Part shown: one piece after another, positions 9,112 through 31,107 of the stretch
Position numbering within the stretch: position 1 is the stretch's first letter
Layout: every line of letters begins with the position of its first letter
NCBI GenBank assembly: GCA_965223325.1
Contig: CBDCWI010000002.1
Location: 1,120,001-1,184,000, forward strand
From: Candidatus Multivoradales bacterium
GTDB taxonomy: Bacteria; Acidobacteriota; Thermoanaerobaculia; Multivoradales; Multivoraceae
DNA length: 64,000 nt
Reading direction: 5' to 3'
The notes under the pieces: model-generated
What the model was told of the DNA's origin: nothing
The model's input: only the letters and a program-made list of their open reading frames with translations
The model's database searches: none
Program-made: the position numbers and the translations under genes

Positions 9112-10842
9112 TCAGAGGTCTGGGCCAGGGCTGTCTCGGACAGGCTCACCGGCGCTTCGAATGAGCTCATGGTAGCGCCCTGGTTGGAGCCCTAGGAAGC
9201 GCTCCCGGCCACCGCTCGGCCAGTGCACGACGACGGAGCGCGCGACCGGCGTAGGCAGCGCGAAGAGCACCCGCGGATCGCTTGCCGAGGCATAGGAGCC
9301 GTCGGTATGCACCCGCCGCCATTGCATCGGCTGACCGGGAGTGTCCGCGGATCCCGCCGGCAGAAGGCCCACCCGTGCACCGTAGACATCCGGGCCTTGC
9401 GACCGGGCACGCACCCTGAGTCCAAGCCAGCGCGTCCCGGGCACTCGTTGATTGAGAAGCAGGCGCGCAGGTCCACCGTTGTTGGTCACCACCAGGTCGG
9501 AGTCGCCATCGTTGTCGATGTCGCCGACGGCCAGGCCCCGGCTGACTTCCGCGGTCCCAGGGTGCAGAGCCCGCTCGACCTCTTCGAATGTGCCGTCGCC
9601 CAGGCCGCGAAACAGCTGGTTCCGCTGCCGCAACGGCAATGACTCGCCCGCGGCGAGCTGTTCGGGGACGCGATGTACCGCGCCGTTCGCAACGTAGAGG
9701 TCGAGCCAGCCGTCGCCATCAAAGTCGAGAGCTGCCGTTCCGAAGCCCGTGAAACTGAAGCTCGGCGCACCGAGCCGACTCGACTGCGAGGCATCGACGA
9801 ACATTCCCTCGCCCGTGTTGCGGTAGAGGGTGTTCGTCTCGCGCGCCAGATGCGACATGAAGAGATCCACCAGTCCGTCGCCGTCGAGATCTTCGGCGAC
9901 CACGCCCATACTCGCCTGCGGCTTCCCATTGCCGTCGACCGCCGCGCCCATTAGAAGGGCGTCGTCGACAAAGCTCCCGTCGCCACGGTTCAACCACAGC
10001 TGATTGGGCATCAGATCGTTGGCGACGTAGAGGTCGAGGTGCCCGTCGTCGTTGAAGTCGGCGGCGACCGCACCAAGGGCGGTGGCTGCCTCACCGGCGA
10101 GTCCGGCGCGCCGCGTCGTATCCTCGAAGGTCCCTCCGCCGAGGTTTCGCAACAACCGGTCGGGTTCCGCGGCGTACGCCAGCGGCCCACAGTAGTCTCT
10201 CGAGCCCTGCGGCATGTAGCACTCGCGGTGCGTGGCGGCGCGAAAGTCGTTGTAGTTGCCCACGAACAGATCAAGATCGCCATCGCCGTCGTAGTCGAAG
10301 AACGTCGCAGCAACGCTCCAACGCGGATCACCCGCTCCAGCCGATTCGGTCACGTCGACGAAGTGTCCGCTCCCGTCATTCCTGAGCAGCTGATTCGCAC
10401 CCCAGTTCGTTATGTAGAGGTCGACTGCGCCATCGCCGTCGTAGTCGCCCGTCGCAACACCCTGGGCGTAGCCGGTCGCTACTCCCAGACCGGACTCTGA
10501 GGAGACGTCCTCAAAACGCAGTGTTCCCTCCTCGAGCCGGTTGATGAACAAGCGGTCGGCGGGCCGGTCTCTGCCGGCTCCGGGTTCCAGGGGTCCGCCC
10601 TGACCGAGGTAGATGTCGAGATCGCCATCGTTATCGAAATCGAGAAGAGCAACCCCGGCGCCCAGGTGCTCTACCGCCCACAGGTCGCCAACCATCCCGT
10701 TCTCGTGCTTGAAAACAAGCCCGACCTCGCGAGCGATGTCTCGAAACACCGGTCCGTCATCCCGGCCCGCGCCGGGCACTGCGACCAAAGCCAGGAGGAG
10801 AAGCGCCACCTGCAACCGCCGACAGATGCGCGGCCCGGTCAT
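9112..10842 (-). CDS. CRTAC1/ASPIC-UnbV family FG-GAP beta-propeller protein, subtype A
   Basis: Signal peptide, many DxDxDGxxD repeats, and a C-terminal ASPIC/UnbV domain (GSYASASDPRVLF...WPSG). Confidence 0.88.
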   Translation of the reverse strand: MTGPRICRRLQVALLLLALVAVPGAGRDDGPVFRDIAREVGLVFKHENGMVGDLWAVEHLGAGVALLDFDNDGDLDIYLGQGGPLEPGAGRDRPADRLFINRLEEGTLRFEDVSSESGLGVATGYAQGVATGDYDGDGAVDLYITNWGANQLLRNDGSGHFVDVTESAGAGDPRWSVAATFFDYDGDGDLDLFVGNYNDFRAATHRECYMPQGSRDYCGPLAYAAEPDRLLRNLGGGTFEDTTRRAGLAGEAATALGAVAADFNDDGHLDLYVANDLMPNQLWLNRGDGSFVDDALLMGAAVDGNGKPQASMGVVAEDLDGDGLVDLFMSHLARETNTLYRNTGEGMFVDASQSSRLGAPSFSFTGFGTAALDFDGDGWLDLYVANGAVHRVPEQLAAGESLPLRQRNQLFRGLGDGTFEEVERALHPGTAEVSRGLAVGDIDNDGDSDLVVTNNGGPARLLLNQRVPGTRWLGLRVRARSQGPDVYGARVGLLPAGSADTPGQPMQWRRVHTDGSYASASDPRVLFALPTPVARSVVVHWPSGGRERFLGLQPGRYHELIRSAGEPVRDSPGPDL

Positions 10843-13133
10843 CTGGGTGCTGTAGCCGCCGGTTTGGGCAAGAGCGGCTCCGGGGTGTCTCGGCCTTCGC
10901 GGATCTTCACCCGGTCACCGGGCCGCAGGCCGCGGACGACCTGACGCAGGCCACTGGCGGGCCACCAGATCTCGACGCGGTCGATGCTCGACGCATCTCC
11001 GAGACCGATGAGCTGTCGCAACGGGTTACCGCCAAAGCTTCCACTCGCCATCACCGTGCGGTAGAGCGAGCGCCCCTCCCCTGGAGCACCCGGCAGGTCG
11101 ACCCGCACGCGCGCGCCAATGGCCGAGCGGTTGCTCTTCTCGCCAACCAGCACCAACTCGATGAACCGCTTCCCGAAGCCCGGGTTGCGATAGAGCGCGT
11201 CGGCGAACCGATCGCCCGGAAACGCACCCCCCATCTGCTCGAAAACATCGAGATCGCCATCGCCGTCGAAGTCGGCGATCGCCACTCCATGGCCTTTCTG
11301 GAGATGCGCAAGGCCCGAGGCGAGCGTCACATCGACGAAGCGTCGGCCAGCATCGTTGCGGTACAGCACGTTCGGCATCAGCCCTTCGTAGTCCGGGTAG
11401 CCGGTGCCCAGATAGAAGTCGAGCCAGCCGTCGCCATCCAGGTCACCGAAGCTCGACCCCATCGTCAGGTGGATGCGCTCGAGGCCGGCCCGCTTGGCAA
11501 CATCCTCGAACCGGCCCTTACCGTTTCCTCTGTACAAACGGGGCTTCTGGTACGGCACTTCGAGGCCGAAGTAGCTGGCCGCTACCAACGAAACGCTGTC
11601 CGGTGCGCCGGCGTAGCTCGATACGTAGAGATCGAGGTTGCCGTCGTTGTCGTAGTCCCAGAACCAGACCGGGAATGAGCTGATCGCATCGGCGACACCG
11701 GCTTCCTCGGCTACGTCATGAAAGCCCTGGTCGCCGCGGTTCTCATAGAGCCGGTTGCTCTGCCCAAGAATCGAGACGTACAGGTCAGCATCACCGTCGT
11801 TGTCGTAGTCGCCCCAGGTCGCCCCCTTCACATAGCCACGCAGGTCCATCCCCGAGGTAGCCGCCACGTCGACAAAGGTGCCGCTTCCCTGGTTCTGAAA
11901 CAGCTGGCTAGGTGCGTCGAAGGACTCGTTCCCCGCCTCGATGCCGAGAACACGGTCCGGGTCGGTACCGTGCTCGTTGCCGACAAAAAGATCGAGGTCG
12001 CCGTCATTGTCGTAGTCGGCAAAGGCCGCCGCCTGGGTCGGCAGATGGAGGTCCCCCAGGCCAGCGGCAAAGGTCGCGTCTCGAAAACGGGCGCGGCCAT
12101 CGTTGAGCAGCAATGAGTTTGGGTGCCGCCCGCGCTCGTAGAGCCAGGCGCCGCGGGTGACAAAGACGTCGAGATCGCCGTCGTTGTCTACGTCACCGTG
12201 GATCAGCTGCAGCCCGCCGTGGAAACCCCGAAGCCCGGCGGACTCGGTGTCGTCTTGAAACGTCCCGTCTCCCTGGTTGCGAAAGAAGTGCGGCTCGGCT
12301 CGAGTATCGAAACTGGTGGTGAGGAGGTCGATATCACCGTCACCGTCGAAGTCGTCAGCGACGACCCCACCGGAAAGATTGAACGTATCGACGCCAACCT
12401 CCGAAGCAACATTCGGGAACCATCGGAACTCGCCACGCGCAGCAAACACGTGTGGTGGAACCCGGTAGCGCTCGGGCACACCGTTGGGATAGACGCCGAG
12501 CGTCATGTGGGCGATATTGAGCAACCACACAGTCTTGACGAAGAGCGGCGAGCTCTGGGGCACCAACTCGAGGACGCGTTCGAAAGAGGTAATTGCCTTT
12601 TTCGAACCAGTCTCGTCGGTGTGGATTCCGCCGCCGCGGATCGGCAAGATGCAACTCTCGGCCGCCGGCCTCTGGGCGCAGTTGCTGGTCTCCCCGTGAC
12701 GCAGGTGCCCAACGCCGAGTCGAAACCAGACCTGTGCGCGCTCGCGCGCCGGTAGGATCGGCCCAAGCCCCTCGGCAAGGTCTCGAGCCTCTTCGAAGCG
12801 CTGGATGGCCTGGTGCTCGCGGCCGAGCCGCAACTCCTGCTCCGCCACTTTCATGAGCGCAAAGAGTCGGTCCCTGGAGGGAGCATCCGCGAGGCGTTCC
12901 AGCTCGGCACGCGCCTCCTGGGCCCGGGCCTCGCCGAGCCAGGGGTTGTCGGTGTCAGTCGCTCTAGCAATCTCAGCGAGCAGCGCCCGCATCCTCTCGT
13001 GCCCGCCTTCAGGCGCAGAAGGCGCCTGGGAGGCTGCCACGGATGGAAGCACCAGGACGCACCAAAGAGAAGCGAGTACGCGCCTTCTGACCCGTCGCGG
13101 AGTGCATCTCACCGTTCTCTCACCATGCGCCAA
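10839..13133 (-). CDS. CRTAC1/ASPIC-UnbV family protein with N-terminal TPR-like domain, subtype B
   Basis: Signal peptide, helical N-domain, DxDxDG repeats, QKGHGVA...QMGGAFPGD and an ASPIC C-domain. Exact start uncertain. Confidence 0.85.
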   Translation of the reverse strand: MAHGERTVRCTPRRVRRRVLASLWCVLVLPSVAASQAPSAPEGGHERMRALLAEIARATDTDNPWLGEARAQEARAELERLADAPSRDRLFALMKVAEQELRLGREHQAIQRFEEARDLAEGLGPILPARERAQVWFRLGVGHLRHGETSNCAQRPAAESCILPIRGGGIHTDETGSKKAITSFERVLELVPQSSPLFVKTVWLLNIAHMTLGVYPNGVPERYRVPPHVFAARGEFRWFPNVASEVGVDTFNLSGGVVADDFDGDGDIDLLTTSFDTRAEPHFFRNQGDGTFQDDTESAGLRGFHGGLQLIHGDVDNDGDLDVFVTRGAWLYERGRHPNSLLLNDGRARFRDATFAAGLGDLHLPTQAAAFADYDNDGDLDLFVGNEHGTDPDRVLGIEAGNESFDAPSQLFQNQGSGTFVDVAATSGMDLRGYVKGATWGDYDNDGDADLYVSILGQSNRLYENRGDQGFHDVAEEAGVADAISSFPVWFWDYDNDGNLDLYVSSYAGAPDSVSLVAASYFGLEVPYQKPRLYRGNGKGRFEDVAKRAGLERIHLTMGSSFGDLDGDGWLDFYLGTGYPDYEGLMPNVLYRNDAGRRFVDVTLASGLAHLQKGHGVAIADFDGDGDLDVFEQMGGAFPGDRFADALYRNPGFGKRFIELVLVGEKSNRSAIGARVRVDLPGAPGEGRSLYRTVMASGSFGGNPLRQLIGLGDASSIDRVEIWWPASGLRQVVRGLRPGDRVKIREGRDTPEPLLPKPAATAPR

Positions 13134-13184
13134 GGCTAGCGGTTCCGAAGCTCTTTCGTGTCGTCGGCGGGAGCGGGCATGCGG

Positions 13185-13214
13185 AAAGGGAGGAGGGCTT
13201 CCCCTCCTCCCTTT
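13185..13214. terminator. Perfect hairpin downstream of TonB-dependent receptor 1
   Basis: aaagggaggaggg-cttc-ccctcctcccttt, a 13 bp perfect stem with only a short U tract. Confidence 0.7.
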
Positions 13215-13238
13215 GACTACCGAGTCATCCAGCGAACG

Positions 13239-16200
13239 CTAGAAATGGAAGGCCAGGGAGGCCCGCCACTGACGCGGTCGTTGGAACTCACGTCGGACAC
13301 GGAGTGGCTCTCCATAAAGCCCGACGTTGATCTGGTCCTGCTGGTTGGTGACATTCGTGCCCTCAATCCGAACCTGACCGGTGAATTCGCTCCGTATCGG
13401 GAACGTCCACGCAAAACTCATATTGAGATCGTAGTGTGGATCAAGCCTCCGAGTGCCGTTGCGCTCGAGAGGAATGTAGACCGTATTGATCGGATCGTTG
13501 GCACTGGGCGCGGCAATCTGCTCGCCGCGACCCCAGGCGCTCCCATCCTGGTAGTTCAGCATGCCGCCCAGGTTCAAGGAGTGCTTGCCGATGGTCCACA
13601 CCTTGAAGCCGAACGTCTTCCAGATGAAGGGGCGATCGACACCGGAGCCGAAGAACCCATCCCCGGGCCCGACTCCTCCGCCGAGGCCATCACGCCCGGC
13701 GCGGTTGACGGTCGAAATCGGCTGGCCGATGTGCGGCGTGAGGAGCGCGACGCAGTCGACCGGGATGGTGCGCGTCGCCTGGAGCGCCTGACAACCGTCA
13801 ACATGCGCCTGGGTGACGACCTCCTGTAGATCCTGGCCGAAGCTCGAGGAGCTGTTGTCCCACCAGGCCCCGGAACCGGTGGTTTCGAGCTTCGAGAGCG
13901 TCAGGTTGTTGTAGAGCGCCCAGCCATTCGAGAAACGCTTGTTGAGCTGGATCTGAACCGCCTGGTACTCCTTGAACGGGTCCTCGAAGCCTTCGATCAG
14001 GTGCTCGGGCACCACGCCCAGCTCGCGCCAATAGTTGCGGATGTTGTCGACGTTGCTCGACAGGCTGAAGGTCCGCAGGTCGGGATCCCGCTGGGTCGTA
14101 TTCATGATCATGTCGCCCAGTTCCCAGTAGATGCCCTTCAGGTCGACAGCCCAATTGTCCGAGAACTGCCACTCGAACCCGGCGATGATCTCGTCCTTGT
14201 AGTAGGGATCGAGGTCGATGGGTGAGATGACCCCGGCATCGGCGAGGTCGAACTGCTCCCCTGGCCGGAAGGCGCGGAAGAACAGGTTGTAGCCCGGTTC
14301 GCCGCCGCACGCCGGGATGAACAGCACGTCGAGGTTGTCGCAATAGAGGAACTCGTCCGAGGCGTTGTGACCGGCCCACTCGTCGAGCAGCCAGCGGTTG
14401 GTGAACTGCTGGTTGAGCTGCGCGTAGTAACGGCCGACGTTGACGCTCGCCAACATGGTCCCGTCACCCTTGAAGTCGTAGCTCATCGCCAGCCGGGGTT
14501 CTAAGGTCTCCGTGTCAACGACCTTGCGGCGGGTGTCGTTCAAGTTCTCCTGCTGCGAGAAACGTACGCCGGCATTGAAGGTCCACCGATCGCCGATCGT
14601 AAAACGATCACGGACGTAGAGGGTGAGGTTCTCGTTCTCGCTGTCTCCGGTGCCTCGACCAGCCGCGACCAGAGAGTCGGGCTGATAGTTGATCCACAGG
14701 CATGGGCGACCGAAGATCAAAGAGCAGCCGGTCTCGGTCCCGGGTGTCGCGGAGTGGTCGTTGCCGGCGTAGCCCGAGGGGCTCGATGGATCGAAGTTGG
14801 GCCCACTGTAGAAGCCCATCCGCTGAGCATCCTGAATCCACGAGACCTCCTGCCAGTCGACGCCAAACTTGACCTCATGGTTGTCGTTGGCGAACCACGT
14901 CAGAGCAGCGTTGGCCTGGTCGCGCGGGTACTCGTTGAGGCCGAAACCGTTGTCGAGGATCCAGCCGTTGTGCCAGGAGTCGTTGTCCTGGTCGTCGACG
15001 TAGACGCGGAAGTTGTTGCCCGCAAAGTGGCACGCCTGGCCGCCGAGATTCGCGAAGGCGCAGGAGCTGGCCAGGTTCGGGTCGCCGGGATAGCCGTTGG
15101 GGGCACGTTGCTTCGTCAAGATGGCCTGCTCAACATCGAGATCTCCCGTTGCCAACAGCTTGTGCTCGTTTGAAGTCTGGGTGGCGATCTTGGTCTCGAG
15201 AAAGACCGACTGTGAGATGGAGTAGTTCCAGTTGAAGGTGCCCAGATCACCGGACAGAACATGCGGTGTGTGGCCCCACTCATCAGCCTGCGGCGTGTGC
15301 ACGTAGTTTCGCGTCGACGGGCTATCGACCCAGGACGCGGACAGCGAGTGCTTCTCGTGGGGCTGGAAGTTGACCTTGCCAATCTTCGCCTGATACTCCC
15401 AGCTGGTGTCGATCAGGCTGCCGTTGATCAGCTTCTCGAAATTGCCCGTCGAGCTGTCACTGAAGGCAGCGAAGAACCACGCCTTGTCGCGAAAAATCGG
15501 ACCGCCAAGTGAAGCTTCGACACCCTCGGCCGTCTGGTCCTTCTCGATCTGGGTGCGTTTGAAGAAGTCACGCGGAGCAGCACCAAACTCGAGGGTCTCG
15601 AGAACCGGCTGATCCTTGTACTCACCGAACCAGTCGGCGTCAGAATAGATACCGACGAGATCACCGTGAAAAGAATTGGTGCCGGACTTGATGATGACGT
15701 TGGTCGACGAGCCGGTCACGCGACCGTACTCGGCACTCGCACCGCCAGCTTCCATGGTGACCTCGCTGGTGGCGGTGGTCGGAAGGATGACGCGCGAACC
15801 GCCGAGGCGCGCAAAGGTTGTGTCGACACCGTCGATGTAGACGCCCTGGTCGGCGAAGTGAGAGCCATTGACGGAGGGACGCATCTCCTGGATGTCACGG
15901 TTGTCGGCGTCGCTGGTCACACCCGGAAGCATGTTGATGACGCCGTAGTAGGTGCGCGTGGTACCGGCCGCCTCGGCACCGACCTCGGAGGTCACCGACT
16001 GCCCCGCAGTGACGTTGTACTTGTCGACCATCGGCGCCTCGGAGGTGACAGTGATCTCTTCGGAGGTCTCGAGTCGCAGCCTGAAGTCGTACTGACCTTT
16101 ATAGCCCGCGGTGATCGAGGCGTTCGCAGACGCGTCACGGAAGCCGTCGAGGCTAGCGGTGATCACATAGTTGCCGGGGCGCAAAAGGGCGAACCGATAG

Positions 16201-16412
16201 ACCCCGTTCTCATCTGTGACAACCGACTGCTCGCCGCGATCTCCCGCGATGGTAACGATGGCACCTGGAATCAAAGCACCACTGTTGTCGGTCACACGTC
16301 CGGTAGCGACGCCGGTCTCCGGCCCGTCAGCGTGGACTGGAACGCCTCCGATTGTGATGACAAGCAGGGCCACGACAGCGGCGATGAGGAGCTTCATAGG
16401 CGCTCGACTCAT
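13239..16412 (-). CDS. Oar-type TonB-dependent receptor 1 (carboxypeptidase-regulatory-like N-domain, plug, barrel)
   Basis: AGGAGG RBS before the ATG at 16412. Signal peptide, GRVTD...PGAIVTI, EEITVT, SAEYGR...KSGTNSFHG and a C-terminal Phe (LAFHF). Confidence 0.9.
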   Translation of the reverse strand: MSRAPMKLLIAAVVALLVITIGGVPVHADGPETGVATGRVTDNSGALIPGAIVTIAGDRGEQSVVTDENGVYRFALLRPGNYVITASLDGFRDASANASITAGYKGQYDFRLRLETSEEITVTSEAPMVDKYNVTAGQSVTSEVGAEAAGTTRTYYGVINMLPGVTSDADNRDIQEMRPSVNGSHFADQGVYIDGVDTTFARLGGSRVILPTTATSEVTMEAGGASAEYGRVTGSSTNVIIKSGTNSFHGDLVGIYSDADWFGEYKDQPVLETLEFGAAPRDFFKRTQIEKDQTAEGVEASLGGPIFRDKAWFFAAFSDSSTGNFEKLINGSLIDTSWEYQAKIGKVNFQPHEKHSLSASWVDSPSTRNYVHTPQADEWGHTPHVLSGDLGTFNWNYSISQSVFLETKIATQTSNEHKLLATGDLDVEQAILTKQRAPNGYPGDPNLASSCAFANLGGQACHFAGNNFRVYVDDQDNDSWHNGWILDNGFGLNEYPRDQANAALTWFANDNHEVKFGVDWQEVSWIQDAQRMGFYSGPNFDPSSPSGYAGNDHSATPGTETGCSLIFGRPCLWINYQPDSLVAAGRGTGDSENENLTLYVRDRFTIGDRWTFNAGVRFSQQENLNDTRRKVVDTETLEPRLAMSYDFKGDGTMLASVNVGRYYAQLNQQFTNRWLLDEWAGHNASDEFLYCDNLDVLFIPACGGEPGYNLFFRAFRPGEQFDLADAGVISPIDLDPYYKDEIIAGFEWQFSDNWAVDLKGIYWELGDMIMNTTQRDPDLRTFSLSSNVDNIRNYWRELGVVPEHLIEGFEDPFKEYQAVQIQLNKRFSNGWALYNNLTLSKLETTGSGAWWDNSSSSFGQDLQEVVTQAHVDGCQALQATRTIPVDCVALLTPHIGQPISTVNRAGRDGLGGGVGPGDGFFGSGVDRPFIWKTFGFKVWTIGKHSLNLGGMLNYQDGSAWGRGEQIAAPSANDPINTVYIPLERNGTRRLDPHYDLNMSFAWTFPIRSEFTGQVRIEGTNVTNQQDQINVGLYGEPLRVRREFQRPRQWRASLAFHF

Positions 16413-16606
16413 GGGGGACACCTCCTGTTGTAGTCGGGCGCGCCGATCAGGCGACAGCCCGGGTCTCGTGCAGGCGCGTCCTCCACAACGGCTCAATACC
16501 AGAAGGCGGCGGCCTGTATGCAACTGACGATCTTGTTTTCTCCGGTCGCGTCAACGTGGGCGCGGACAAGAGTCACCGGGGAAACGACTTGATATCGGAA
16601 GGTTCT

Positions 16607-18454: not shown

Positions 18455-18456
18455 TC

Positions 18457-19593
18457 GTGCATGCTCATCTCGCCTGGGCGACGCTCGCGGTACTGGGCGC
18501 GACGACGGTCGCCTGCGCGGACAGATCATCGCCGCCAGCGCCGACAGCAGCGCAAAGCTCGCCACAGGAGGAGGGCCTCGCGCTGGCGCCGCTCGCACAG
18601 GCAGCAGGTGAGCTTCCGGCAAGCATTGTCGACCCAGCGGTGGCGCGAGCCCTCGAACGCGCCCGCACCGCCGTTTATGAGCGCCCGGACGACGCCGCGG
18701 CGCACGGAGCCCTGGGTCGTCTCTACCATGCCCACAAACACACCGACCTTGCACGGGCAAGCTACGCCGCAGCCCACCGACTCGCTCCCGAATCTCCAGA
18801 GTGGCCCTACTACCTGGCGCTCTTCGCTCATGATCGCGGCGACCATGGCGAAGCGATCAGCCTCCTCAATGAGGTGATCAGACAGGCGCCTGATCACGCC
18901 CCGGCGTGGCTTCATCGCGCCTCGGCAGCGCTGGCGCTCGGCAACGTCGCGGTGGCGCGACGCGACTTCGCGCACCTCGAGGAACTCGCGCCGGGTGCTC
19001 CCGATGGCGCGATCGGCCTGGCACGGATCGCGATTCGCGAGGGCAACCACCAGCGAGCCGCCGCGCACCTCGAGCGCGCCCTCCAGGTGGCCCCGCGTCA
19101 CCACGAAGCGCTCTATCTTCTGGCGATGACACGTCGCCGCCTCGGAGACGACCGCGCCGCGCGCCGAGTGCTCGCGCGCCTCGAGGGGGCCGTACCAGCC
19201 CCCCTCGACGACCCCTGGCTGGTCAAGGCACTCGAGCAACGTACGGATCTCGAGGAGCGCAACAACACCGCCAATCGGCTGCTCGCCGAAGGCAACATCG
19301 AAGCTGCCGAAGTGCTCTACCGGGAGGTCATCCTCGAGAACCCAGAACACGCCGACGCGCTCTACAATCTGGGTCTTCTTCTAGCGCGCAGCGGCCGATC
19401 CGAGGAAGCGAGCGCGGTCCTCGAACGCGCGCGGGCCGTGCGCGATGGCGCCGACACCAACTTTCTGTTGGCGATGACCTACCTCTCGCTCGGGCAACCG
19501 CAAACGGCCTTCGAGCGCCTCGAGAGCGCGCTTGCCATCGAGCCCGAGCACGCGCTTGCACGCGACCTGATGAAACGGCTCACCGATGACTGA
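18457..19593 (+). CDS. Exported TPR protein (lipoprotein)
   Basis: TVAC lipobox, multiple TPRs and a WPYY motif. Confidence 0.8.
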   Translation: MHAHLAWATLAVLGATTVACADRSSPPAPTAAQSSPQEEGLALAPLAQAAGELPASIVDPAVARALERARTAVYERPDDAAAHGALGRLYHAHKHTDLARASYAAAHRLAPESPEWPYYLALFAHDRGDHGEAISLLNEVIRQAPDHAPAWLHRASAALALGNVAVARRDFAHLEELAPGAPDGAIGLARIAIREGNHQRAAAHLERALQVAPRHHEALYLLAMTRRRLGDDRAARRVLARLEGAVPAPLDDPWLVKALEQRTDLEERNNTANRLLAEGNIEAAEVLYREVILENPEHADALYNLGLLLARSGRSEEASAVLERARAVRDGADTNFLLAMTYLSLGQPQTAFERLESALAIEPEHALARDLMKRLTDD

Positions 19594-19607
19594 CAGTCCG
19601 TGCCCCC

Positions 19608-21911: not shown

Positions 21912-21965
21912 GTTCGACAGGATACTCTCGATACGATCGGCTCCCGGCCCCCAGGACGCCCGTCG

Positions 21966-23726: not shown

Positions 23727-23790
23727 CCACATCGAGAACCCTGGCCGCGACGAGTCACTCAGGCCGGTGTTTCGACCGAGGACCGATCCA

Positions 23791-24669
23791 TCAGCATCGG
23801 CGAATTCGAATCGGCACTCCATCGGGGTCGGAGAAGCGTTCGATTCTCGCTGCCTCCCCCGCGCCGGGCCCACCAGCTGCCTCGAACGCCAGATGCTCCA
23901 GGCCGCAGAGCCGTGGCGCCAGATCACGCCACTCCTGCCCGTCGCGAGCGTAGAGCTCGAGGGTAGTGTACGGGCGTTGCCACAGCCACGGACGGTTCGC
24001 CGTCGCCTCGAGGTCTGGATCTGGTGGCCGTTCGGCGGTGAACGCGAGGAACCACAGGGTGAAGTTGAACCGCGCGACTGGTTGGCGTGACAAGAGGGTC
24101 ATACCCAGGCCACGGTAGAAGGCGAGACTCAACTCGGGCTTTCGCACCCGCAGGGTCAACTGACCGAGAACCGCCGGAGAGCCGAGCGGGAAACGCGCGT
24201 TGTCAGCTCGAGCAGGAGCGCAGGCCCGGCCGAACTGATGTTGGAGGAGTTCGATGGCATGGCCGTCCGGATCCGCCAGATGGCACAAGTAGCCGACGTC
24301 CTCGAACTGACGAGGCTCCGAGACCTCGACCTCCGCCGCACGAAGATGCTGCGCCGCCAGGTCGACGTTCGGCAGCGTGATCCCCAGCTTCCACCAGGTA
24401 TCGGTCGCCTCGGCCGAAAGGTCAAGGCCCTCGCGTGCACGAAGCACGAGGCGCGTCGGCTCGGGAGAACCATCGTCACAAAACGCAACCTCGGCGGCAT
24501 TCTCGCCCTCCTCGAGCACGGTCATCCCCAACCGATCGCGGTAGAAGGCGAGGCTCTCCGATAGATCAGACACCGCTATCGTGGCACTCTCGATCCGGCC
24601 TCGGGATCCGGGCGAGCGTGGCTCATCTCCCGACACGCCTCGAACCGTGTCACGGGCGTCCGAGGTCAC
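23791..24669 (-). CDS. Two-domain VOC/glyoxalase I-like protein
   Basis: Two SLAFY..LGM repeats and DPDG motifs. Start overlaps the stop of the upstream TPR gene. Confidence 0.8.
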   Translation of the reverse strand: MTSDARDTVRGVSGDEPRSPGSRGRIESATIAVSDLSESLAFYRDRLGMTVLEEGENAAEVAFCDDGSPEPTRLVLRAREGLDLSAEATDTWWKLGITLPNVDLAAQHLRAAEVEVSEPRQFEDVGYLCHLADPDGHAIELLQHQFGRACAPARADNARFPLGSPAVLGQLTLRVRKPELSLAFYRGLGMTLLSRQPVARFNFTLWFLAFTAERPPDPDLEATANRPWLWQRPYTTLELYARDGQEWRDLAPRLCGLEHLAFEAAGGPGAGEAARIERFSDPDGVPIRIRRC

Positions 24670-25970
24670 GGCCGGCGGCCTGCGCGGTACGCGGCCAAGG
24701 CATGCTTGCGTTCCTCGACGACGGCGGGCGCCCCAGCCTCAACAGCCATCTCGAGAGCCTGTTCAGCACGCAGCACTGCGCCCTCGAAGTCGCCCACCGC
24801 AGCAAGCCCATCGGCCAGCTCGACCAACACACTCTCCAGGACGGCGCGGAGTTCGCGCTGGTGGTCTCGGGCAGCGAAAGCTTTGTCGAGTGCCGGTAGA
24901 AGCGCCGCGACATCGCCGCGCCGCGCCGCGGCCAGGGCGCGCAGTACGAGCATGTGAAAGTGACCAGGGCGAACCTCCAGCACCTTGCCAGCCAGCCGAT
25001 CGGCGTCTTGAAACCGGCCAATCTTCCACCAGTTCGATGCCAGCATGGCCGTGGCGTCGACTCTCTGTTCCCCGGACGCCCTGCCGAGAGCCCGTTCGGC
25101 TGCGGCGGCGGCATCGGTGGGACGACCTTGTAGCTCATGGGCTGAAGCCGTCATCAGCCAGGCACTGGGGTTCTCAGGGTCCAGCTTGCGCAACTCGTCG
25201 AGTACCTTGAGCGCTGCCTCGGCCTGGCCGCTATCCAGTGACATGCGGGCGCGTCGGAGGAAGCCACCGACATCAACTGCCCGTGCGGAGATCTCGGCTC
25301 GTAGCGGGTCGCGATGCTTCAGTGTGCGCGAGAAGCCTCGCGCGGCTGCAATCAGGCTTTGAGCCTCGTCACGCCGGCCCGCCTGGTGATACGCACGCGC
25401 GAGAGTCGCGGCGATCGCCTGACTCGCTGGTGCAAACCGGCGGGCGCGCTCCAAGAGGGCGATCGCCTCGCCGACTTGGCCACGGCGCAGCGCGAGCCGG
25501 CCGAGCCCGAAGTGCCCCAGGGCGTTCTGAGGATCGAGGACCGCGGCTCGCTTGTAGAGCCCAGCGGCCTCTTGTTCGCGGCCCAGTTTCTCGACGGTTT
25601 CTCCCCAACGAATGTAGAGCGGAGCGTAGTTCGAAAGAGTCGCCGCCGCCCGTTCGAACCACCCGGACGCAGCAGCAGGATCCTCAGACGAAAGCAGCAT
25701 GGCACGGAAGTACGGCCACCGGACATTCCCGGGGTCAAGTTCGGCAGCTCGCTCGTAGGCACTGCCCGCCGGGACAATCAGCCCGTGGGCCTCGAGGATC
25801 ATTCCGTAGTCGCCCCAATTGGCGCCGTCGGAGGGCGTTTCCACAACCTGACCGCGAGCGGCCTCGATCGCCGTGACGACATTGGCGTCGAGGCCACTGA
25901 GCTCCGGCTGCGGTACAGGTTGTGCTGAAGAGGTCGCGGCAAGAGCCAGCACTGCGACGATGAACATCAT
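24666..25970 (-). CDS. Exported TPR protein
   Basis: Signal peptide MMFIVAVLALAATSSA, TPRs and a WPYF motif; paralogue of the other two TPR genes. Confidence 0.8.
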   Translation of the reverse strand: MMFIVAVLALAATSSAQPVPQPELSGLDANVVTAIEAARGQVVETPSDGANWGDYGMILEAHGLIVPAGSAYERAAELDPGNVRWPYFRAMLLSSEDPAAASGWFERAAATLSNYAPLYIRWGETVEKLGREQEAAGLYKRAAVLDPQNALGHFGLGRLALRRGQVGEAIALLERARRFAPASQAIAATLARAYHQAGRRDEAQSLIAAARGFSRTLKHRDPLRAEISARAVDVGGFLRRARMSLDSGQAEAALKVLDELRKLDPENPSAWLMTASAHELQGRPTDAAAAAERALGRASGEQRVDATAMLASNWWKIGRFQDADRLAGKVLEVRPGHFHMLVLRALAAARRGDVAALLPALDKAFAARDHQRELRAVLESVLVELADGLAAVGDFEGAVLRAEQALEMAVEAGAPAVVEERKHALAAYRAGRRP

Positions 25971-26017
25971 CGCCACTCTCAGAAGCCAACGGGCGGAGTG
26001 AAAGAACGCTCCGGCGG

Positions 26018-27865
26018 TCACCGAACTGAAACTCCGGTTCCGCGCTCGAGCCGGCGCGCTTTCGAAACTTCGCCGCCAGGGAACGACTCGGCCATTCCAT
26101 CCGGCCACCTGACTTCGATGCGATCGATCGCCGTCAACTGACCGAGGCCAAAGTGTACGACTGGCTCACGACCCGAGAGGTAGGAACCCCCGCTCGAGAC
26201 CACGCCGATGAAACGTCGCTCGCCAGCGAACAGCGCGATCGTCGCACCAAGAGCGTCTCGGCCACCGCGTTCCGGCAGGACGGCACGTACGCTGAGAAAG
26301 GAGCCCCTCGAGCCGTCCGAACCCTTCGAGTCGTTGCGATAGATCCTCACCGGGCCTTCTACATTGGACAAGACAAGATCGAGATCACCATCTCGATCCA
26401 GGTCAGCAGGCACCAACCCTCTGCTCACTTCGGCTGACGCGAAGAAATCACCTTCGCCCTCCGCGGCCTCAACGTAGCCCCCCGCCGAGGAGGTCAACAG
26501 CGAGTTGCGCTCGCCATAGGCATTCCAGAAGCCTGGGCTCGCTCCTTCTTGCGGCTCCGACCGGCGCTTGACGGCACCGTTCGCAATCGCCACGTCGAGG
26601 TCGCCGTCGAGGTCGCCGTCGAAGAACACGGTTCCGAAACCGGTGACTCCAAGTGACGGAAGACCGACACCGGCCTCGGCGGAAATATCCTCGAACCCGA
26701 CCGCGCCTCGGTTTCCGTAGAGCGTGTTGGTCTCGTCGGCCAGGTGCGTCACCATGAGATCGAAATCACCGTCGCCGTCTGCGTCACCTACCGCAACTCC
26801 CATGCCTGCCTCTCCCACTCCGTAGCGGTTGAACGCGAGGCCCTCGAGAATCGCCTCGTCTTCGAGCCGACCGTCGCGCCACACCCATAAGAGGTTGGGA
26901 TCCGAGTCGTTGGCAACGTATAGCGCTGGCGGGCCGGAGTCCGCGACCGGAAGCAGGTCGACTCCCAGTCCACGGTATCGCAGCCTCTGGACTCCCCAGG
27001 GGCCGGACATATCTTCGAAGCCCCGCCCGTCCAGGTTGCGGTAGACACGGTCGGGCAGGGCAGCAAGTTGCGCTGGGCCGCAATAGTCTGGCCGGCCGCC
27101 CTCGAGGAAACACTCGCGACCGATTCGGTAGTCGACGTAGCGAGTGACGTAGAGGTCGAGCCAGCCGTCTCGGTCGAGGTCGACGAAGGTTGCCGAGGCC
27201 GACCAGCCATCTCGAGCAAGCACGTCTCCCTGACGCTGCGCGAAACGGCCTCCTTCGTTGCGCAGCAACTCGTCGCCGCCCCAGGCGCTGATGAAAACGT
27301 CCAGGTCACCATCGTTGTCAACGTCGCCCAGGGCACATCCTTGTCCCCAACGCTCATCGTCCCCAGGCGACACCGCGAGGCCAGCAGCCACCGAGGCGTC
27401 CTCGAACCGCATTGGCTCGACCTGTCGAAACAGTCGATTGCCCCACCCGGCGCCTGGCCGGCCACCGACCGCCAACACGTCAACCCATCCATCACCGTCA
27501 GCGTCGAAGACGCAGAGGCCCCCGCCCATGATGGCGGGCATCGGCCAGGTCCCTTCACTGGCCGTCCGGTGTCGGAGCTCGAGACCCGCTGAGGTTGTCA
27601 CGTCGACGAAAGAAAGCCCGCTGCTCCCGTCGCCTCCAACGACGCTCGCGGGCTCCCTGGCTGCTCCGCCCGGGCCGGGTCTGCTATCGCGGGCACAAGA
27701 GAGAACGGCGAAGGTCAGCGCCAAAAGGCAGAATCTCGAAAGCGTTGACAACACGTCGCGTGACGGTCTCGCCTGCAGGCTGCCGAGACGAAAACGGGCC
27801 AGCCCAAACGGCTGGCCCGATTTCTCACCAGGAAAGGCACCGGAGTAGGCCACCTCTTCCGGCAA
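26018..27865 (-). CDS. CRTAC1/ASPIC-UnbV family protein, subtype A (possible lipoprotein)
   Basis: VLSC lipobox-like motif, DxDxDG repeats, GEAGMGV and an ASPIC C-domain. The true start is probably downstream of 27865. Confidence 0.85.
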   Translation of the reverse strand: MPEEVAYSGAFPGEKSGQPFGLARFRLGSLQARPSRDVLSTLSRFCLLALTFAVLSCARDSRPGPGGAAREPASVVGGDGSSGLSFVDVTTSAGLELRHRTASEGTWPMPAIMGGGLCVFDADGDGWVDVLAVGGRPGAGWGNRLFRQVEPMRFEDASVAAGLAVSPGDDERWGQGCALGDVDNDGDLDVFISAWGGDELLRNEGGRFAQRQGDVLARDGWSASATFVDLDRDGWLDLYVTRYVDYRIGRECFLEGGRPDYCGPAQLAALPDRVYRNLDGRGFEDMSGPWGVQRLRYRGLGVDLLPVADSGPPALYVANDSDPNLLWVWRDGRLEDEAILEGLAFNRYGVGEAGMGVAVGDADGDGDFDLMVTHLADETNTLYGNRGAVGFEDISAEAGVGLPSLGVTGFGTVFFDGDLDGDLDVAIANGAVKRRSEPQEGASPGFWNAYGERNSLLTSSAGGYVEAAEGEGDFFASAEVSRGLVPADLDRDGDLDLVLSNVEGPVRIYRNDSKGSDGSRGSFLSVRAVLPERGGRDALGATIALFAGERRFIGVVSSGGSYLSGREPVVHFGLGQLTAIDRIEVRWPDGMAESFPGGEVSKARRLERGTGVSVR

Positions 27866-27879
27866 CCTGTCTCAGGTTC

Positions 27880-30800
27880 CTAGAACTTCAGAGACAGCGA
27901 GGCTCGGAACTGGCGCGGCCGTTGGAAGTTGCGCCGTACGCGCCCGATCTCACCACGACTTGTGGTGAAGGTCCGCTCCTGCTCGTTCGTCACGTTCAGG
28001 CCCTCGACCCTTAAGCCGCCTCGCACCTGACCAGAAATTGGGAAACCCCAATTCATGCTCATGTTGATGGCGTAGATGTCGGTGAGACGACGTGCTCCGC
28101 GCTCCTCGACGTAGAGCGTGACCCCACTGTTTGCCGCGGTGTTGCCATCGAGGGCGATGGTGCTCACGCCTTCGGTGCGCTGCCAGGGCAGACCGTCCTG
28201 GTACTGGAAGTGACCACCAATGGTCAGGTCGTGCGAACCGATCGCCCAACGCTTGAAGCCGAAGGTGTTCCAGATGATCGGCCGATCGATGTTGTTGGCC
28301 TTTCCAACGCGGTTGATCGTCGAGACCGGTTGCCCAAGGAAGGGGGTCAGCACGCTGCAGTCAACCGGCACGGTCCGAGTCCGCCCTTGGGCGTTCGGGT
28401 TGGTCTGGTTGAACTGGCAGGAATCGATGTGATCCTGCGTCAGGACAACGTGCAGGTCTTCGCCGTAGTCGGAGTTGGTGTTGTTCCACCAGGCACCCGC
28501 GCCACTGGTCTCGGTTTCCGAGAACGTCACGTTATTAAACAGCGCCCACCCGTTGGCGAACCTGCGATTGAGCTGCAGCTGAATCGCCTGATACTCCATC
28601 TTGCCTGGCTCGTAGTTGTTCAGAATCGCGTCGGCGCGTGCGGCGAGCTGTTCTGGCGACTCGTCAGGGAAGACGTTGGTGTTCGCAGCGATGAAGTTGT
28701 CCACAAACCCAATGTTGCGCAGGATGTCGGCGTAGTCGTTGTAGTTGGCGAGCAACTTGAACTGATCGCTCTCCGGCGACAGCTGAATGGTCGCACCGAT
28801 CATGTCGTCGAGTTCCCACCACAGCCCCTTGACGTCGAGGGCCCAGTTGGGTGCAACCTGCCACTCGAAGCCCAGGATCACTTCATCCTTGTAGTAGGGA
28901 TCGATGTCAGATTGGAAGTAGCCCTGGTCGACCAACTCCCACATCCGACCCGAACGCAGCTCGCGCAGTCGGAAGTTGTAGCCGACGCCGTTCTGCGCGC
29001 AGCCGGGGAGTCCAAAAGTAACGTCAAGAAAGTCACAGAAGAGCCACGTCACTTGGTCAGAGCCGATTTCCCCGTTGGGGTTGTCGCGAAGATGCTCCTG
29101 GACCCACTGTTGGTTGAGCTGCGCGTAGTAGCGACCAACATTGGCGGAGAAGAGCATCTGGCCGTCACCACGAATGTCGTACGTCGCCGACAGACGGGGA
29201 GCAAAGTTATTGGCGTCAACGACTTCCCGACCGGTGTCGTTCTCAGCCACTGCGTTCTCGTAGCGCAGACCGAGGTTGAAGGTCCAGTGGTCGCCACTGG
29301 TGAAGCGATCCCGTACATAGAACGCCAGGTCTTCGTTCTTCGTGTTACCGCTCCCGAGGACCATGTCCTCCGGGAAGGTCGTCCAGGCACAGGTGCCCAG
29401 GGCGCGGGTGGCTGGGATCCCCAGCGAGTTGGCGAACGCGACAGTCGACGCATTGGTGCGCGCGATACCGCAGTCGAGCGGGCCGATGCCGCCATTGGCT
29501 GCGTCAAACCCGAACGGGTTGAAGGCGTTGAAGAAGCCGCCATCGTAGACATCGAGGCCCTGGATGTTGGCGTCCCACTCGACTGTCTGCCAGTCGATGC
29601 CGTACTTCAACTCGTGGTTCGAGCCCGCGAACTGCGTCAGGCTGAGGTTGGCCTGATCGCGCGGGAACTCGTTGGTACCGAAACCGTTGTCCAGCAACCA
29701 ACCGTTGTTCCAAGCGCCGTCATTCTGACTGTCCCGGTAGACGTCGAAATTGTTGACCGGAGAATGCGGGAAGATCTCGAGCCCCGGCAGCACCGCGAAA
29801 CGCGGGTCCTGCTGCTTCTGGGCCAGGCACACGCCGGGATCAGTGCTACCGCAGGCGAGGAACTTGTTCTCATCCGACTGCTGGGTGGCGATCTTGGCCT
29901 CGAGGAAGAAATTGTTACTCGCCGACCAGTTCCAGCTCAGGGTACCGAGGGTGCCATCTGAAACATGGGGAGTGGGCGTCCAGAGATCGTTGGATTCCGG
30001 GTTGAAGTACACCCGATCTGCCGGCGTGTCGATCCAAGAGAACGAAAGTGAGTGCGCGGGCGCGGGCTGTACGTTGAACTTGGCGATACGCGCTTCGGTG
30101 TTCAGAGACACGTCGATGGCGTCACCATTGAGCGTGCGGTCGATATCGTTCGTCGACACGTCGCTCCAGGCCAGGAAGAACCAAGCTTTGTCGCGCGCCA
30201 ACGGCCCGCCAAAGCCCAGCTCGAAGCTATCGGACTTGCCGTCCTCTTCCACGTCACCCGTGCCGAAGAAGTCGCGCTTGAAGAAGTTCGGATCTTCGGG
30301 GAAGTTCTGCCGCTGGGTGAGTTCGACGTGGCTGTCGTAGTCAGATTGCCAGGCCGTCTCCTGCCGCTGCCAGAGCAGGTCGCCATGGAACTTGTTGGTT
30401 CCTGACTTCACGATGACATTGGTCGTCGAGCCCACGGCGCGACCGTACTCAGCCGAAGAACCACCGGCTTCCATCGTCACCTCGGTAACCGCCGAGGTCG
30501 GAATGTAGACGCGGCTGCCACCGAAGCGAGCGAAACTCGAGTCGACGCCGTCGATGAAGACCTGCTGGTCAGCCCAGTTGCTGCCGTTGACCGTCGGTCG
30601 AGTACCCTGGATGTCGGCGTTCTGCGAGTCGCTCGATACACCAGGAAGGGTGTTGATGACGCCGTAGTAGGTGCGAGTGGTTCCGGCGGTTTCCTGGCCG
30701 ACCTCAGAGGTCACGGTCGATCCGGCGGTAACGTTGTACTTGTCGACCATCGGCGCTTCCGAGGTAACGGTGATCTCCTCTGAAGTTCCCATGGACAACC

Positions 30801-31107
30801 GAAAGTTCACGTCGGCGCGAGCCCCGCCTGAAACCTGGGTCGCGGCTTCCATGGTGTCGAAGCCGTCCATGTTGGCCGTCACCCTATACTCGCCGGGCAC
30901 CAGGAGAGCGATCCGAAACTCCCCCTTCTCGTCTGTAAAGGCCTCGCGGGCACCGCGGCCAGCGTCAGCAGCGATACGGACGCCTGGAATGGGTGCCCCC
31001 GAGGCGTCGGTGACGACACCGGAGATGACACCGGTCTCCTGGCCATCGGCCCAGGCCATACCCGCCACCGCGGCGACCGCGAGGATCATGATGAAGATTC
31101 GCCTCAT
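27880..31107 (-). CDS. Oar-type TonB-dependent receptor 2
   Basis: Same architecture as receptor 1, a near-identical plug N-terminus (TSEEITVTSEAPMVDKYNVTAG), and a C-terminal Phe. Confidence 0.9.
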   Translation of the reverse strand: MRRIFIMILAVAAVAGMAWADGQETGVISGVVTDASGAPIPGVRIAADAGRGAREAFTDEKGEFRIALLVPGEYRVTANMDGFDTMEAATQVSGGARADVNFRLSMGTSEEITVTSEAPMVDKYNVTAGSTVTSEVGQETAGTTRTYYGVINTLPGVSSDSQNADIQGTRPTVNGSNWADQQVFIDGVDSSFARFGGSRVYIPTSAVTEVTMEAGGSSAEYGRAVGSTTNVIVKSGTNKFHGDLLWQRQETAWQSDYDSHVELTQRQNFPEDPNFFKRDFFGTGDVEEDGKSDSFELGFGGPLARDKAWFFLAWSDVSTNDIDRTLNGDAIDVSLNTEARIAKFNVQPAPAHSLSFSWIDTPADRVYFNPESNDLWTPTPHVSDGTLGTLSWNWSASNNFFLEAKIATQQSDENKFLACGSTDPGVCLAQKQQDPRFAVLPGLEIFPHSPVNNFDVYRDSQNDGAWNNGWLLDNGFGTNEFPRDQANLSLTQFAGSNHELKYGIDWQTVEWDANIQGLDVYDGGFFNAFNPFGFDAANGGIGPLDCGIARTNASTVAFANSLGIPATRALGTCAWTTFPEDMVLGSGNTKNEDLAFYVRDRFTSGDHWTFNLGLRYENAVAENDTGREVVDANNFAPRLSATYDIRGDGQMLFSANVGRYYAQLNQQWVQEHLRDNPNGEIGSDQVTWLFCDFLDVTFGLPGCAQNGVGYNFRLRELRSGRMWELVDQGYFQSDIDPYYKDEVILGFEWQVAPNWALDVKGLWWELDDMIGATIQLSPESDQFKLLANYNDYADILRNIGFVDNFIAANTNVFPDESPEQLAARADAILNNYEPGKMEYQAIQLQLNRRFANGWALFNNVTFSETETSGAGAWWNNTNSDYGEDLHVVLTQDHIDSCQFNQTNPNAQGRTRTVPVDCSVLTPFLGQPVSTINRVGKANNIDRPIIWNTFGFKRWAIGSHDLTIGGHFQYQDGLPWQRTEGVSTIALDGNTAANSGVTLYVEERGARRLTDIYAINMSMNWGFPISGQVRGGLRVEGLNVTNEQERTFTTSRGEIGRVRRNFQRPRQFRASLSLKF

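Follow-up and report, generated by a model that had tools for sequence, protein, structure and literature searches.

In a stretch of 64,000 nucleotides from Candidatus Multivoradales bacterium, a member of the Acidobacteriota and, by best hits, of the class Thermoanaerobaculia (contig CBDCWI010000002.1, positions 1,120,001 to 1,184,000), here referred to as the window, the region from 9112 to 31107 encodes two TonB-dependent transporters (TBDTs) of the Oar class, TBDR1 and TBDR2, together with three A-type (A1 to A3) and two B-type (B1 and B2) β-propeller proteins of the CRTAC1/ASPIC-UnbV family, three TPR proteins (TPR1 to TPR3) and one VOC protein. We describe here that such propeller genes cluster with TBDT genes in related genomes, that A-type genes are paired with a TPR gene and that natural fusions join the same partners; in addition, a complex between one A-type propeller and its TPR neighbor is predicted. 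We favor, with slightly better than even confidence, the interpretation that propeller and TPR proteins form an accessory binding module that serves TonB-dependent uptake and has its counterpart in the binding proteins of polysaccharide utilization loci (PULs). TBDT uptake loci with accessory binding proteins are known, and the propeller-TPR accessory would be a new version of them.

The gene inventory was based on a six-frame list of open reading frames (ORFs) and a Pfam scan of the 11 proteins, and all genes of the original prediction, which had been made from the sequence alone, were found where it had placed them. At the left end, A1 (9112-10842, minus strand; 576 amino acids with a signal peptide) matches FG-GAP_3 at 2e-51 and UnbV_ASPIC at 8e-10, and its start overlaps the stop of B1 (10839-13133, minus strand), the true start of which probably lies inside the open frame, the database form (P0121) having 717 amino acids. 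Next to B1 is TBDR1 (13239-16523, minus strand; database form P0028, 1,057 amino acids), with MSRAPMKLL as its probable start and with CarboxypepD_reg and OMP_b-brl_4 domains. A2 (16694-18454, plus strand) is divergent from TBDR1 and is followed after 2 nucleotides by TPR1 (18457-19593, plus strand), which matches many TPR families of Pfam. B2 (19608-21974, minus strand) is convergent with TPR1 and divergent from TPR2, a Pfam-supported TPR protein of about 585 amino acids encoded in the open frame 21357-23726 (plus strand), with a probable start near 21969 (MVHLLF...). The last group comprises TBDR2 (27880-31107, minus strand), with an N-terminal extension and a barrel by Pfam and with a candidate plug region; A3 (26018-27865, minus strand), directly downstream of it with a spacing of 15 nucleotides in the ORF list; TPR3, of about 435 amino acids (open frame 24666-26108, minus strand; probable start near 25973, MMFIVAV...) and likewise identified by Pfam; and the VOC gene (23791-24669, minus strand), which encodes a two-domain glyoxalase-family protein (Glyoxalase, 7e-17) without a signal peptide and whose start overlaps the stop of TPR3. 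These short gaps and overlaps suggest the operons TBDR1-B1-A1, A2-TPR1 and TBDR2-A3-TPR3-VOC, in the last of which VOC is probably cotranscribed, while B2 and TPR2 would be transcription units of their own.

All five propeller proteins score above both Pfam cutoffs for FG-GAP_3 and UnbV_ASPIC, and in the B proteins these two domains are preceded by some 250 N-terminal residues that are helical and match TPR families weakly. Regular-expression searches found six to seven Dx[DN]x[DN]G-type motifs per propeller protein (seven in A1), which we regard as putative calcium loops. With NCBIfam, none of the A and B proteins was assigned to a family, and the TPR proteins had only matches far below the cutoff. 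When the translations were examined by eye, every cluster protein except VOC was seen to start with a hydrophobic export signal, and lipobox-like motifs with proline-rich linkers were noted in A3 (VLSC), B2 (LIGC), TPR1 (TVAC) and perhaps A2 (AHGC). The motif of B2 is present only with the long start and would be lost in the database form (P0151, 710 amino acids), which starts later. The paralogy proposed in the original prediction was borne out by BLASTP for the receptors (47% identity over the full length) and for both propeller types (A1/A2, 47%; A1/A3, 40%; A2/A3, 39%; B1/B2, 57%; A versus B, about 30%). The TPR proteins are the weakest part of this gene content observation, as they are only 27 to 28% identical to each other (E values of 1e-12 to 1e-14), but all three share a W-P-Y-[YF] motif at the same position (WPYY in TPR1 and TPR2 and WPYF in TPR3). 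In a phmmer search of the window ORFs of at least 90 residues, none of the four families occurred in the other 42 kb, apart from a 16-bit CarboxypepD_reg match at 43906-45156. SusD, glycoside hydrolase (GH), siderophore and ABC transporter families, the absence of which had been pointed out earlier, were not found among the 11 cluster proteins (Pfam; E value of ≤0.01 for SusD); for glycoside hydrolases, this absence does not extend beyond the window, the Terriglobia versions described below lying amid GH genes.

Conservation of the neighborhood was followed in relatives collected by a contig scan with a TBDT alignment, which gave 466 pattern matches; 244 of these passed confirmation, and the 80 best were retained. 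They correspond to 61 distinct loci, each extended by at most 10 kb in either direction, and to 47 genomes when contigs are grouped by accession; all 61 come from metagenome-assembled genomes titled Thermoanaerobaculia, "Candidatus Multivorans/Multivoraceae," Acidobacteriota, Holophagales/Holophagae or Vicinamibacteraceae. Families were assigned by phmmer of the window proteins against all stop-to-stop ORFs, with at least 200 bits for an A-type call, a block being an uninterrupted series of family members with gaps of <800 nucleotides and overlapping loci of one contig being counted twice. An A-type propeller gene lies within 10 kb of the TBDT gene in 45 of the 61 loci, A, B and TPR genes occur together in 33, and an A- or B-type gene stands beside a TBDT gene of this clade in 42 of the 47 genomes. 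Moreover, most members of the accessory families are found in an uninterrupted block that includes a TBDT gene (61 of 76 A, 26 of 33 B and 54 of 65 TPR genes). More than 20 arrangements of the genes were counted among the blocks: with R for the transporter and t for the TPR gene, these include R>A>t>, which was found six times and equals the order TBDR2-A3-TPR3, the longer series A>t>B>R>R> and B>R>R>R>A>t>, and t<A<R>R>, in which the genes diverge. A neighborhood that is kept while its order is shuffled argues for selection on clustering, beyond inherited synteny alone. The conserved colocalization that the original prediction had proposed as a check is therefore seen in Thermoanaerobaculia, and the unit is also present on Terriglobia plasmids.

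Some of these loci have features of their own. Tandem arrays of two to four paralogous TBDT genes, flanked by a B gene upstream and an A-TPR pair downstream, are present in L016, L019, L024, L027, L036, L039 and other "Ca. Multivorans" loci. In loci of "Ca. Multivorans," genes for CoA-transferase III, PSCyt1/PSCyt2/PSD1 and DUF1501, formyl transferase and a nucleoside symporter recur as neighbors and offer no clear clue to function. The gene pairs of PSCyt1/PSCyt2/PSD1 (DUF1549/DUF1553) and DUF1501 recur beside the TBDT-propeller arrays: the protein cluster containing 18373-22644 (plus strand) of L022, a DUF1501 protein by Pfam, occurs in 14 loci, and that of L022:18545-21127 (PSCyt1/PSCyt2/PSD1) occurs in 9.

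A-type propellers and TPR proteins are coupled as well. For 65 of the 76 A genes, the next gene downstream is a TPR gene on the same strand, and the pairs are matched by subtype, with A2-type genes next to TPR1-type genes in L004, L005, L009 and L058 and A3-type genes next to TPR3-type genes in L004, L005, L006, L011 and L058. A1-type genes are paired with TPR2-type genes in most other loci; the two are adjacent in the near relative L009 and separated in the window. Natural fusions are classically taken as a sign that the corresponding separate proteins cooperate, and we searched for them among the longer homologues of A2 (7,057 of 8,000 scored candidates at an E value of ≤1e-20). About 34 of the 120 long homologues listed combine TPR families of Pfam with UnbV_ASPIC, and 23 of the 42 long proteins checked by phmmer are single A-then-TPR polypeptides, the C-terminal part of which matches the TPR proteins of the window. 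The order within these fusions is the same as the gene order, and 5 of the 23 have a W[PN]Y[YF] motif about 80 to 90 residues into the TPR part. Five further proteins (P0229, P0246, P0247, P0255 and P0265) are A-then-B fusions, and in P0152, a TPR2-type protein with a WAYY motif is fused in front of a B-type propeller. The propeller is also found in a different setting: five A-type homologues of 2,100 to 2,860 amino acids (P0241, P0272, P0273, P0290 and P0318) combine FG-GAP/UnbV propellers with Peptidase_S8 and with FlgD_ig or type IX secretion system sorting domains, so that the propeller is there a module of secreted proteases; one of these records is titled "Candidatus Eisenbacteria."

An interface between an A-type propeller and a TPR protein, which the original prediction had suggested should be modeled, is predicted with confidence for A2 and TPR1. 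With a 548-residue chain of A2 (alignment of 38 rows) and 357 residues of TPR1 (28 rows), the interface score ipSAE was 0.77 in all three runs, and the best control gave 0.00. Scores this high were obtained for 116 of 157 solved complexes and for 2 of 215 mismatched pairs, a calibration that holds only roughly here, as our own alignments were used. The runs agreed in at least 81% of contacts, and the partners had predicted local distance difference test (pLDDT) values of at least 83. The model supports, rather than demonstrates, the binding of A2 to TPR1. On the TPR1 side, the confident contacts (residues 38, 41, 72 to 75, 105 to 109, 138 to 141, 169 to 173 and 195 to 218) recur about every 33 residues, as expected of a concave groove, and are more conserved than the whole protein (0.41 versus 0.29 identity to the first row of the alignment). 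Those of A2 center on residues 273 to 284 and 323 to 339; apart from three invariant glycines among them (G190, G276 and G283), they are variable (0.35 versus 0.45), which would fit pair-specific recognition. The WPYY motif of TPR1 comprises residues 95 to 98 (about 18802-18813 in the window), of which W95 and Y97 are invariant in the 28-row alignment.

Units of the same kind are found in other lineages. A tblastn search of a plasmid collection with A2 matched six records, five of which were inspected. In plasmid pACPOL3 of Acidisarcina polymorpha (Terriglobia), a GH172 gene and a TBDT gene whose product has a carboxypeptidase-like regulatory domain (1,172 amino acids) are followed by a CRTAC1 gene and a TPR gene and then by genes for DUF2961, an aldo/keto reductase, a LacI regulator and a fucose permease (FucP), and pACPOL4 of the same species carries a TPR-CRTAC1 pair near a GH27 gene. 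Granulicella tundricola, also of the Terriglobia, has the order TBDT, CRTAC1, carboxylesterase, GH30, GH28 and GH28-related on plasmid pACIX902, with alginate lyase-family, GH88 and TPR genes nearby; on its plasmid pACIX901, there are an alpha-glucosidase gene, a series of TBDT, hypothetical protein, TPR and two CRTAC1 genes, a CRTAC1-TPR pair on the other strand and a GH88 gene. The propeller units of these cultured Terriglobia sit in sugar-catabolic loci. Their CRTAC1 proteins are of the A type (285 to 356 bits), their TPR partners lack the WPYY motif, and their TBDTs have either no phmmer match to TBDR1 and TBDR2 or one of only 52 bits. Since the plasmid-encoded TBDTs are not close to those of the window, the propeller, often with a TPR partner, accompanies several TBDT subfamilies. 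The fifth record, a plasmid of Chondrinema litorale (Bacteroidota), has a TonB-dependent receptor gene (SusC) and a RagB/SusD gene followed by three genes for VCBS repeat/CRTAC1-like proteins, the first of which (1,165 amino acids) matches A2 at 241 bits. When B1 was used as the query, tblastn matched only the propeller part of A-type/VCBS genes, and none of the six records covered 80% of the query.

Structural predictions gave information on the fold of the propellers. The AlphaFold2 model of B1 (pLDDT, 84.5; predicted TM score [pTM], 0.88) consists of a helical repeat domain (residues 5 to 210), a propeller and a C-terminal β-sandwich, and Foldseek ranked mouse CRTAC1 (9etn) first, with an E value of 2e-26 and a TM score of 0.75 on the target. 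The window proteins have in common with CRTAC1 an FG-GAP propeller of the calcium-binding type followed by an UnbV_ASPIC β-sandwich, and the relationship is also visible in sequence matches (2.7e-17 for A2 and 4e-10 for B1), although the structural alignment of B1 shows only 19% identity; in contrast to CRTAC1, they are bacterial, are encoded beside TBDTs and have either a TPR partner (A type) or a helical N-terminal domain (B type). The next matches were fungal N-acetylglucosamine-binding lectins (4tqj, 2bwr and 5mb4) and then integrin alpha chains. These PVL-type lectins and integrins share the seven-bladed FG-GAP propeller and Dx[DN]x[DN]G-type motifs, a likeness at the level of the fold only (10 to 18% identity; TM scores of 0.28 to 0.35 on the query). 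No enzyme was present among the 50 Foldseek matches listed for this model against the Protein Data Bank (PDB). We also considered whether the N-terminal domain of the B proteins is a fused copy of the TPR partner and rejected this, as hhalign gave a probability of 8% between the B and TPR alignments; the domain is of a generic TPR-like kind and has no specific relationship to the partner. A feature search of the Atlas with residues 40 to 255 of B1 returned only TPR-like and FG-GAP clusters (≤0.91), which serves as a lead only.

The two receptors belong by architecture to the Oar subclass of TBDTs, which, in the available text of the source, is defined by a CarboxypepD_reg N-terminal extension (PMC6434023). 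TBDR1 and TBDR2 match CarboxypepD_reg (PF13620) with 62.3 and 67.9 bits, respectively (cutoff, 32.3), and OMP_b-brl_4 (PF25183) with 57 and 52 bits (cutoff, 30). For the Plug family, TBDR2 is just under the cutoff of 23.9, at 23.0 bits, and TBDR1 has no match; both receptors are just under the cutoff for TonB_dep_Rec_b-barrel. The sequence EEITVTSEAP after the N-terminal extension of TBDR2 is kept in an alignment of 25 homologues, and we take it to resemble a TonB box. A model of TBDR2 built by AlphaFold2 on these 25 homologues has a barrel with pLDDT values in the 80s and a confident N-terminal extension, with the plug region being poor (pLDDT of <50 for residues 101 to 175 and 204 to 221). 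It gave 340 Foldseek matches in the PDB at an E value of ≤0.001, and all 50 matches listed are TBDTs, led by the protein importers FusA (4zgv; E value, 7e-29) and YddB (6ofr; E value, 6e-27). However, the TM scores for FusA and YddB (0.64 to 0.69 on the target) are no better than those for siderophore receptors, a sequence search of the PDB with TBDR2 gave no match, and neither FusA nor YddB has an N-terminal extension or propeller partners. The SusC model TIGR04056 gave 17.8 bits for TBDR1 against a cutoff of 368 and no match for TBDR2. At least 164 homologues of TBDR2 were found at an E value of ≤1e-20 among 8,000 scored candidates, and those with names among the best 120 of the 164 are all Acidobacteriota or Thermoanaerobaculia; a third paralogue (P0034) is encoded on the same 4.55-Mb contig as the window. 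With Oar of Myxococcus xanthus, as far as the available text of its description goes, the receptors share a signal peptide, CarboxypepD_reg and a large barrel, with a candidate plug region that has a TonB box-like motif lying between the last two, a likeness of domain order rather than of measured sequence relatedness; Oar is tied to secretion of the protease PopC (PMC6434023), and the window cluster has no PopC-like gene.

In light of these data, the reading that we favor is that the cluster consists of TonB-dependent outer membrane uptake units that were expanded by duplication. Each unit would combine an Oar-class TBDT, with its CarboxypepD_reg extension, putative plug region and 22-strand-type barrel, and exported CRTAC1 β-propellers of the calcium-binding type. 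The A-type propeller would form a heterodimer with the cognate TPR protein encoded directly downstream, with a loop region of the propeller predicted to sit in the concave groove of the TPR superhelix, and the B-type propeller would carry a helical N-terminal domain of its own. Given the integrin- and lectin-like fold and the lack of an enzyme look-alike, we read the propellers as capture proteins for a macromolecular substrate, with a glycan or glycoconjugate as the likeliest candidate. They may hand this substrate to the TBDT or accept it from there. By analogy, this role would be that of the surface glycan-binding proteins and SusD in the PULs of Bacteroidota. Like SusC/SusD PULs, the window cluster places a large TBDT with a CarboxypepD_reg-type extension beside exported, probably partly lipid-anchored proteins that are putative accessory binding proteins, and in both the units are much duplicated; in addition, the Terriglobia relatives lie amid GH genes and the CRTAC1-like genes of Chondrinema follow SusC and SusD. 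In contrast to these PULs, the window cluster lacks a SusD-family protein, the SusC signature, a carbohydrate-active enzyme (CAZyme) and a regulator, and its accessory proteins are FG-GAP/UnbV propellers with TPR partners.

Several observations weigh against such an uptake module. A lone TBDT gene is the commonest block type (26 blocks), 15 of the 61 loci lack all three accessory families, and the closest relatives of TBDR2 (L001 to L003; 59 to 68% identity) have no propeller. One of them, L002, has the right flank of the window, with the PA domain protein, a glyoxalase-family (VOC) gene and a QTMAN-type glycosyltransferase, and its TBDT gene is followed by genes for an S13 peptidase, a kinase-like protein and an OPT oligopeptide transporter. 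The propeller module is thus frequent but not obligatory beside TBDTs and is dispensable in the nearest relatives of TBDR2. The 61 loci all come from one class, were selected by TBDT similarity and include some double counting, and inherited synteny therefore explains part of the signal. As there is no glycoside hydrolase in the window, the proposed ligand class rests on more distant relatives. A rough regular expression found a lipobox-like motif in 27 of 70 A, 3 of 27 B and 2 of 39 TPR proteins, and with such mixed export signals, a periplasmic location is as possible as surface exposure. Furthermore, the WPYY motif lies outside the confident contacts between A2 and TPR1, and full-length B homologues of >50% identity come from records named Planctomycetota (P0196) and Roseibacillus (P0240).

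The original prediction had proposed a multisubunit receptor complex analogous to but distinct from SusC-SusD, with propellers as lids or adhesins and TPR proteins as scaffolds. In a bolder version of the uptake interpretation, the CRTAC1-TPR pair and its fused forms would be a widespread and undescribed class of TBDT accessory subunits that replaces the layer of SusD and surface glycan-binding proteins in Acidobacteria and docks on Oar-class TBDTs. We regard this as possible but rather doubtful. Colocalization and the predicted A-TPR interface partly support the earlier proposal, and the absence of propellers from L001 to L003 and the lone TBDT blocks speak against its strong form, as does Chondrinema, where the CRTAC1-like proteins encoded after SusC and SusD look like extra binding proteins and not like a replacement of SusD.

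As an alternative, the propellers and TPR proteins could be independent exported binding or adhesion proteins of the "eukaryote-like repeat protein" kind, directed at matrix, particles or a host, that share regulation or ancestry with the TBDT genes and have no link to transport. The frequency of lone TBDTs and of loci without accessory genes, together with the missing module in the closest relatives of TBDR2, would agree with this, as would the resemblance of the fold to integrins and lectins. The high conservation of the B type across phyla suggests a stand-alone function, and ASPIC/UnbV, VCBS and TPR proteins are, according to the available text of the source, among the repeat proteins that are abundant in poribacterial single-cell genomes from marine sponges (PMC3909097). 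Nevertheless, we consider independent adhesins unlikely: the great majority of A and B genes remain in unbroken TBDT blocks despite the shuffled order, the unit is found again in Terriglobia beside TBDTs of unrelated subfamilies and, in the Bacteroidota record, after SusC-SusD, and the Terriglobia units lie amid catabolic genes that include a LacI regulator and a sugar permease.

It could also be argued that the propellers, and the B type in particular, are enzymes, for instance, calcium-dependent polysaccharide lyases that cut the substrate before or after import, with the TPR protein as a regulatory or anchoring subunit. β-Propeller lyase families exist, and the B proteins are conserved to a striking degree: an alignment of 24 rows has a mean column identity of 72%, far above those of the A and TPR alignments, and invariant clusters include a pair of cysteines in the helical N-terminal domain and the polar stretches GTGYPDYE, HLQKGH and QMGGA.PGD. 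At least 7,744 B homologues were found at an E value of ≤1e-10 among 8,000 scored candidates, and those of >50% identity from records named after other phyla were mentioned above. Pectin/uronate-type CAZymes are, moreover, encoded in the Terriglobia loci (GH28, GH88 and the alginate lyase-family gene). We nonetheless find catalysis quite improbable, as the B1 model resembles CRTAC1, lectins, integrins and other binding propellers, with no enzyme among its 50 listed matches, and no catalytic family of Pfam or NCBIfam was matched. Least probable, in our judgment, is that the Oar-class TBDTs act outward in protein export with the TPR protein as a chaperone, for although TBDR1 and TBDR2 carry the extension that defines the Oar subclass, the TPR proteins have subthreshold matches to SycD/LcrH and SctY chaperone models and the predicted complex sets a propeller loop in the TPR groove, these chaperone matches are generic and far below the cutoff, the single experimental precedent concerns a subtilisin-like protease as cargo that is unrelated to the window proteins, no subtilase is encoded in the cluster by Pfam, the units of Terriglobia and Bacteroidota belong to import and catabolic loci, and tandem arrays of two to four TBDTs fit a diversification of substrates better than the export of a single cargo.

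In soils and sediments, Acidobacteria rank among the most abundant bacteria; they have very many Oar-class TBDTs, and we know of neither substrates nor helper proteins for those of this phylum. In the full-text literature, subscription journals and supplements aside, we found no paper that describes an association of CRTAC1/ASPIC-UnbV propellers with TBDTs and no functional study of bacterial members of the family. In the available text of two sources, ASPIC/UnbV and TonB-dependent proteins are both merely listed as expanded paralogue families in Solibacter (PMC3174227), and a CRTAC1-family gene is mentioned next to hydrazine synthase-like genes (PMC12758564). With the present analysis, the large CRTAC1/ASPIC-UnbV family gains a regular genomic partner, the TBDT, and a predicted protein partner, the TPR protein. 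If the propellers are indeed transporter accessories, the PUL concept would extend beyond SusD-bearing bacteria, and if they form an undescribed accessory class, this would be a SusD-independent machine for nutrient capture in soil and marine Acidobacteria. CAZyme-embedded versions of the unit are available in cultured organisms, namely, Granulicella tundricola and Acidisarcina polymorpha.

With regard to the surroundings of the cluster, the tonB gene that had been placed 9 kb away corresponds to a gene at 39864-40658 (minus strand), the product of which matches TonB_C at 3.8e-21; it is a candidate energizer linked to the cluster only by its proximity, 8.8 kb to the right, and exbB and exbD were not found in the window flanks scanned. 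The VOC gene is regarded as a neighbor of the module rather than a member, as no homologue was detected in the 61 loci at an E value of ≤1e-5; in L002, the TBDT gene has a glyoxalase-family gene on its opposite flank. Two genes beyond A1, after a NUDIX gene, is a pectinacetylesterase-family gene (7248-8489, minus strand; 5.6e-14, 52.5 bits versus a cutoff of 26.6), which was missed in the original prediction and is the only carbohydrate-active candidate near the cluster. On the other side, a PA domain protein with M36-like PA regions is encoded at 32004-33788 (plus strand), divergent from TBDR2, and has a subthreshold match to the metalloprotease family NF038122 (54.7 bits; cutoff, 80). Its counterpart in L002 (7139-9694, minus strand) occupies the same position by the TBDR2 relative, and the protein cluster is present in six loci; this neighbor may be a sign that the substrate of the TBDR2 lineage is a protein or peptide.

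The rest of the window consists of unrelated housekeeping genes, among which a few loci may be mentioned. Three adjacent ORFs at 50675-58064 (minus strand) encode UvrD helicase and PD-(D/E)XK nuclease proteins of an AddAB/RecBCD-like kind, the helicase being apparently split into 50675-52195 and 52105-54468. At the left end of the window, a gene for a YscJ/FliF-family lipoprotein (2.1e-17) and a small TPR gene, at 1270-2130 and 3712-4287 (both minus strand), possibly belong to a secretion locus or a flagellar-type locus. Finally, within 33880-36899 (plus strand), the gene for an MBOAT-family O-acyltransferase (35484-36899) overlaps by 4 nucleotides the end of a 535-amino-acid ORF without a family match, and the two are a possible polysaccharide O-acylation pair.

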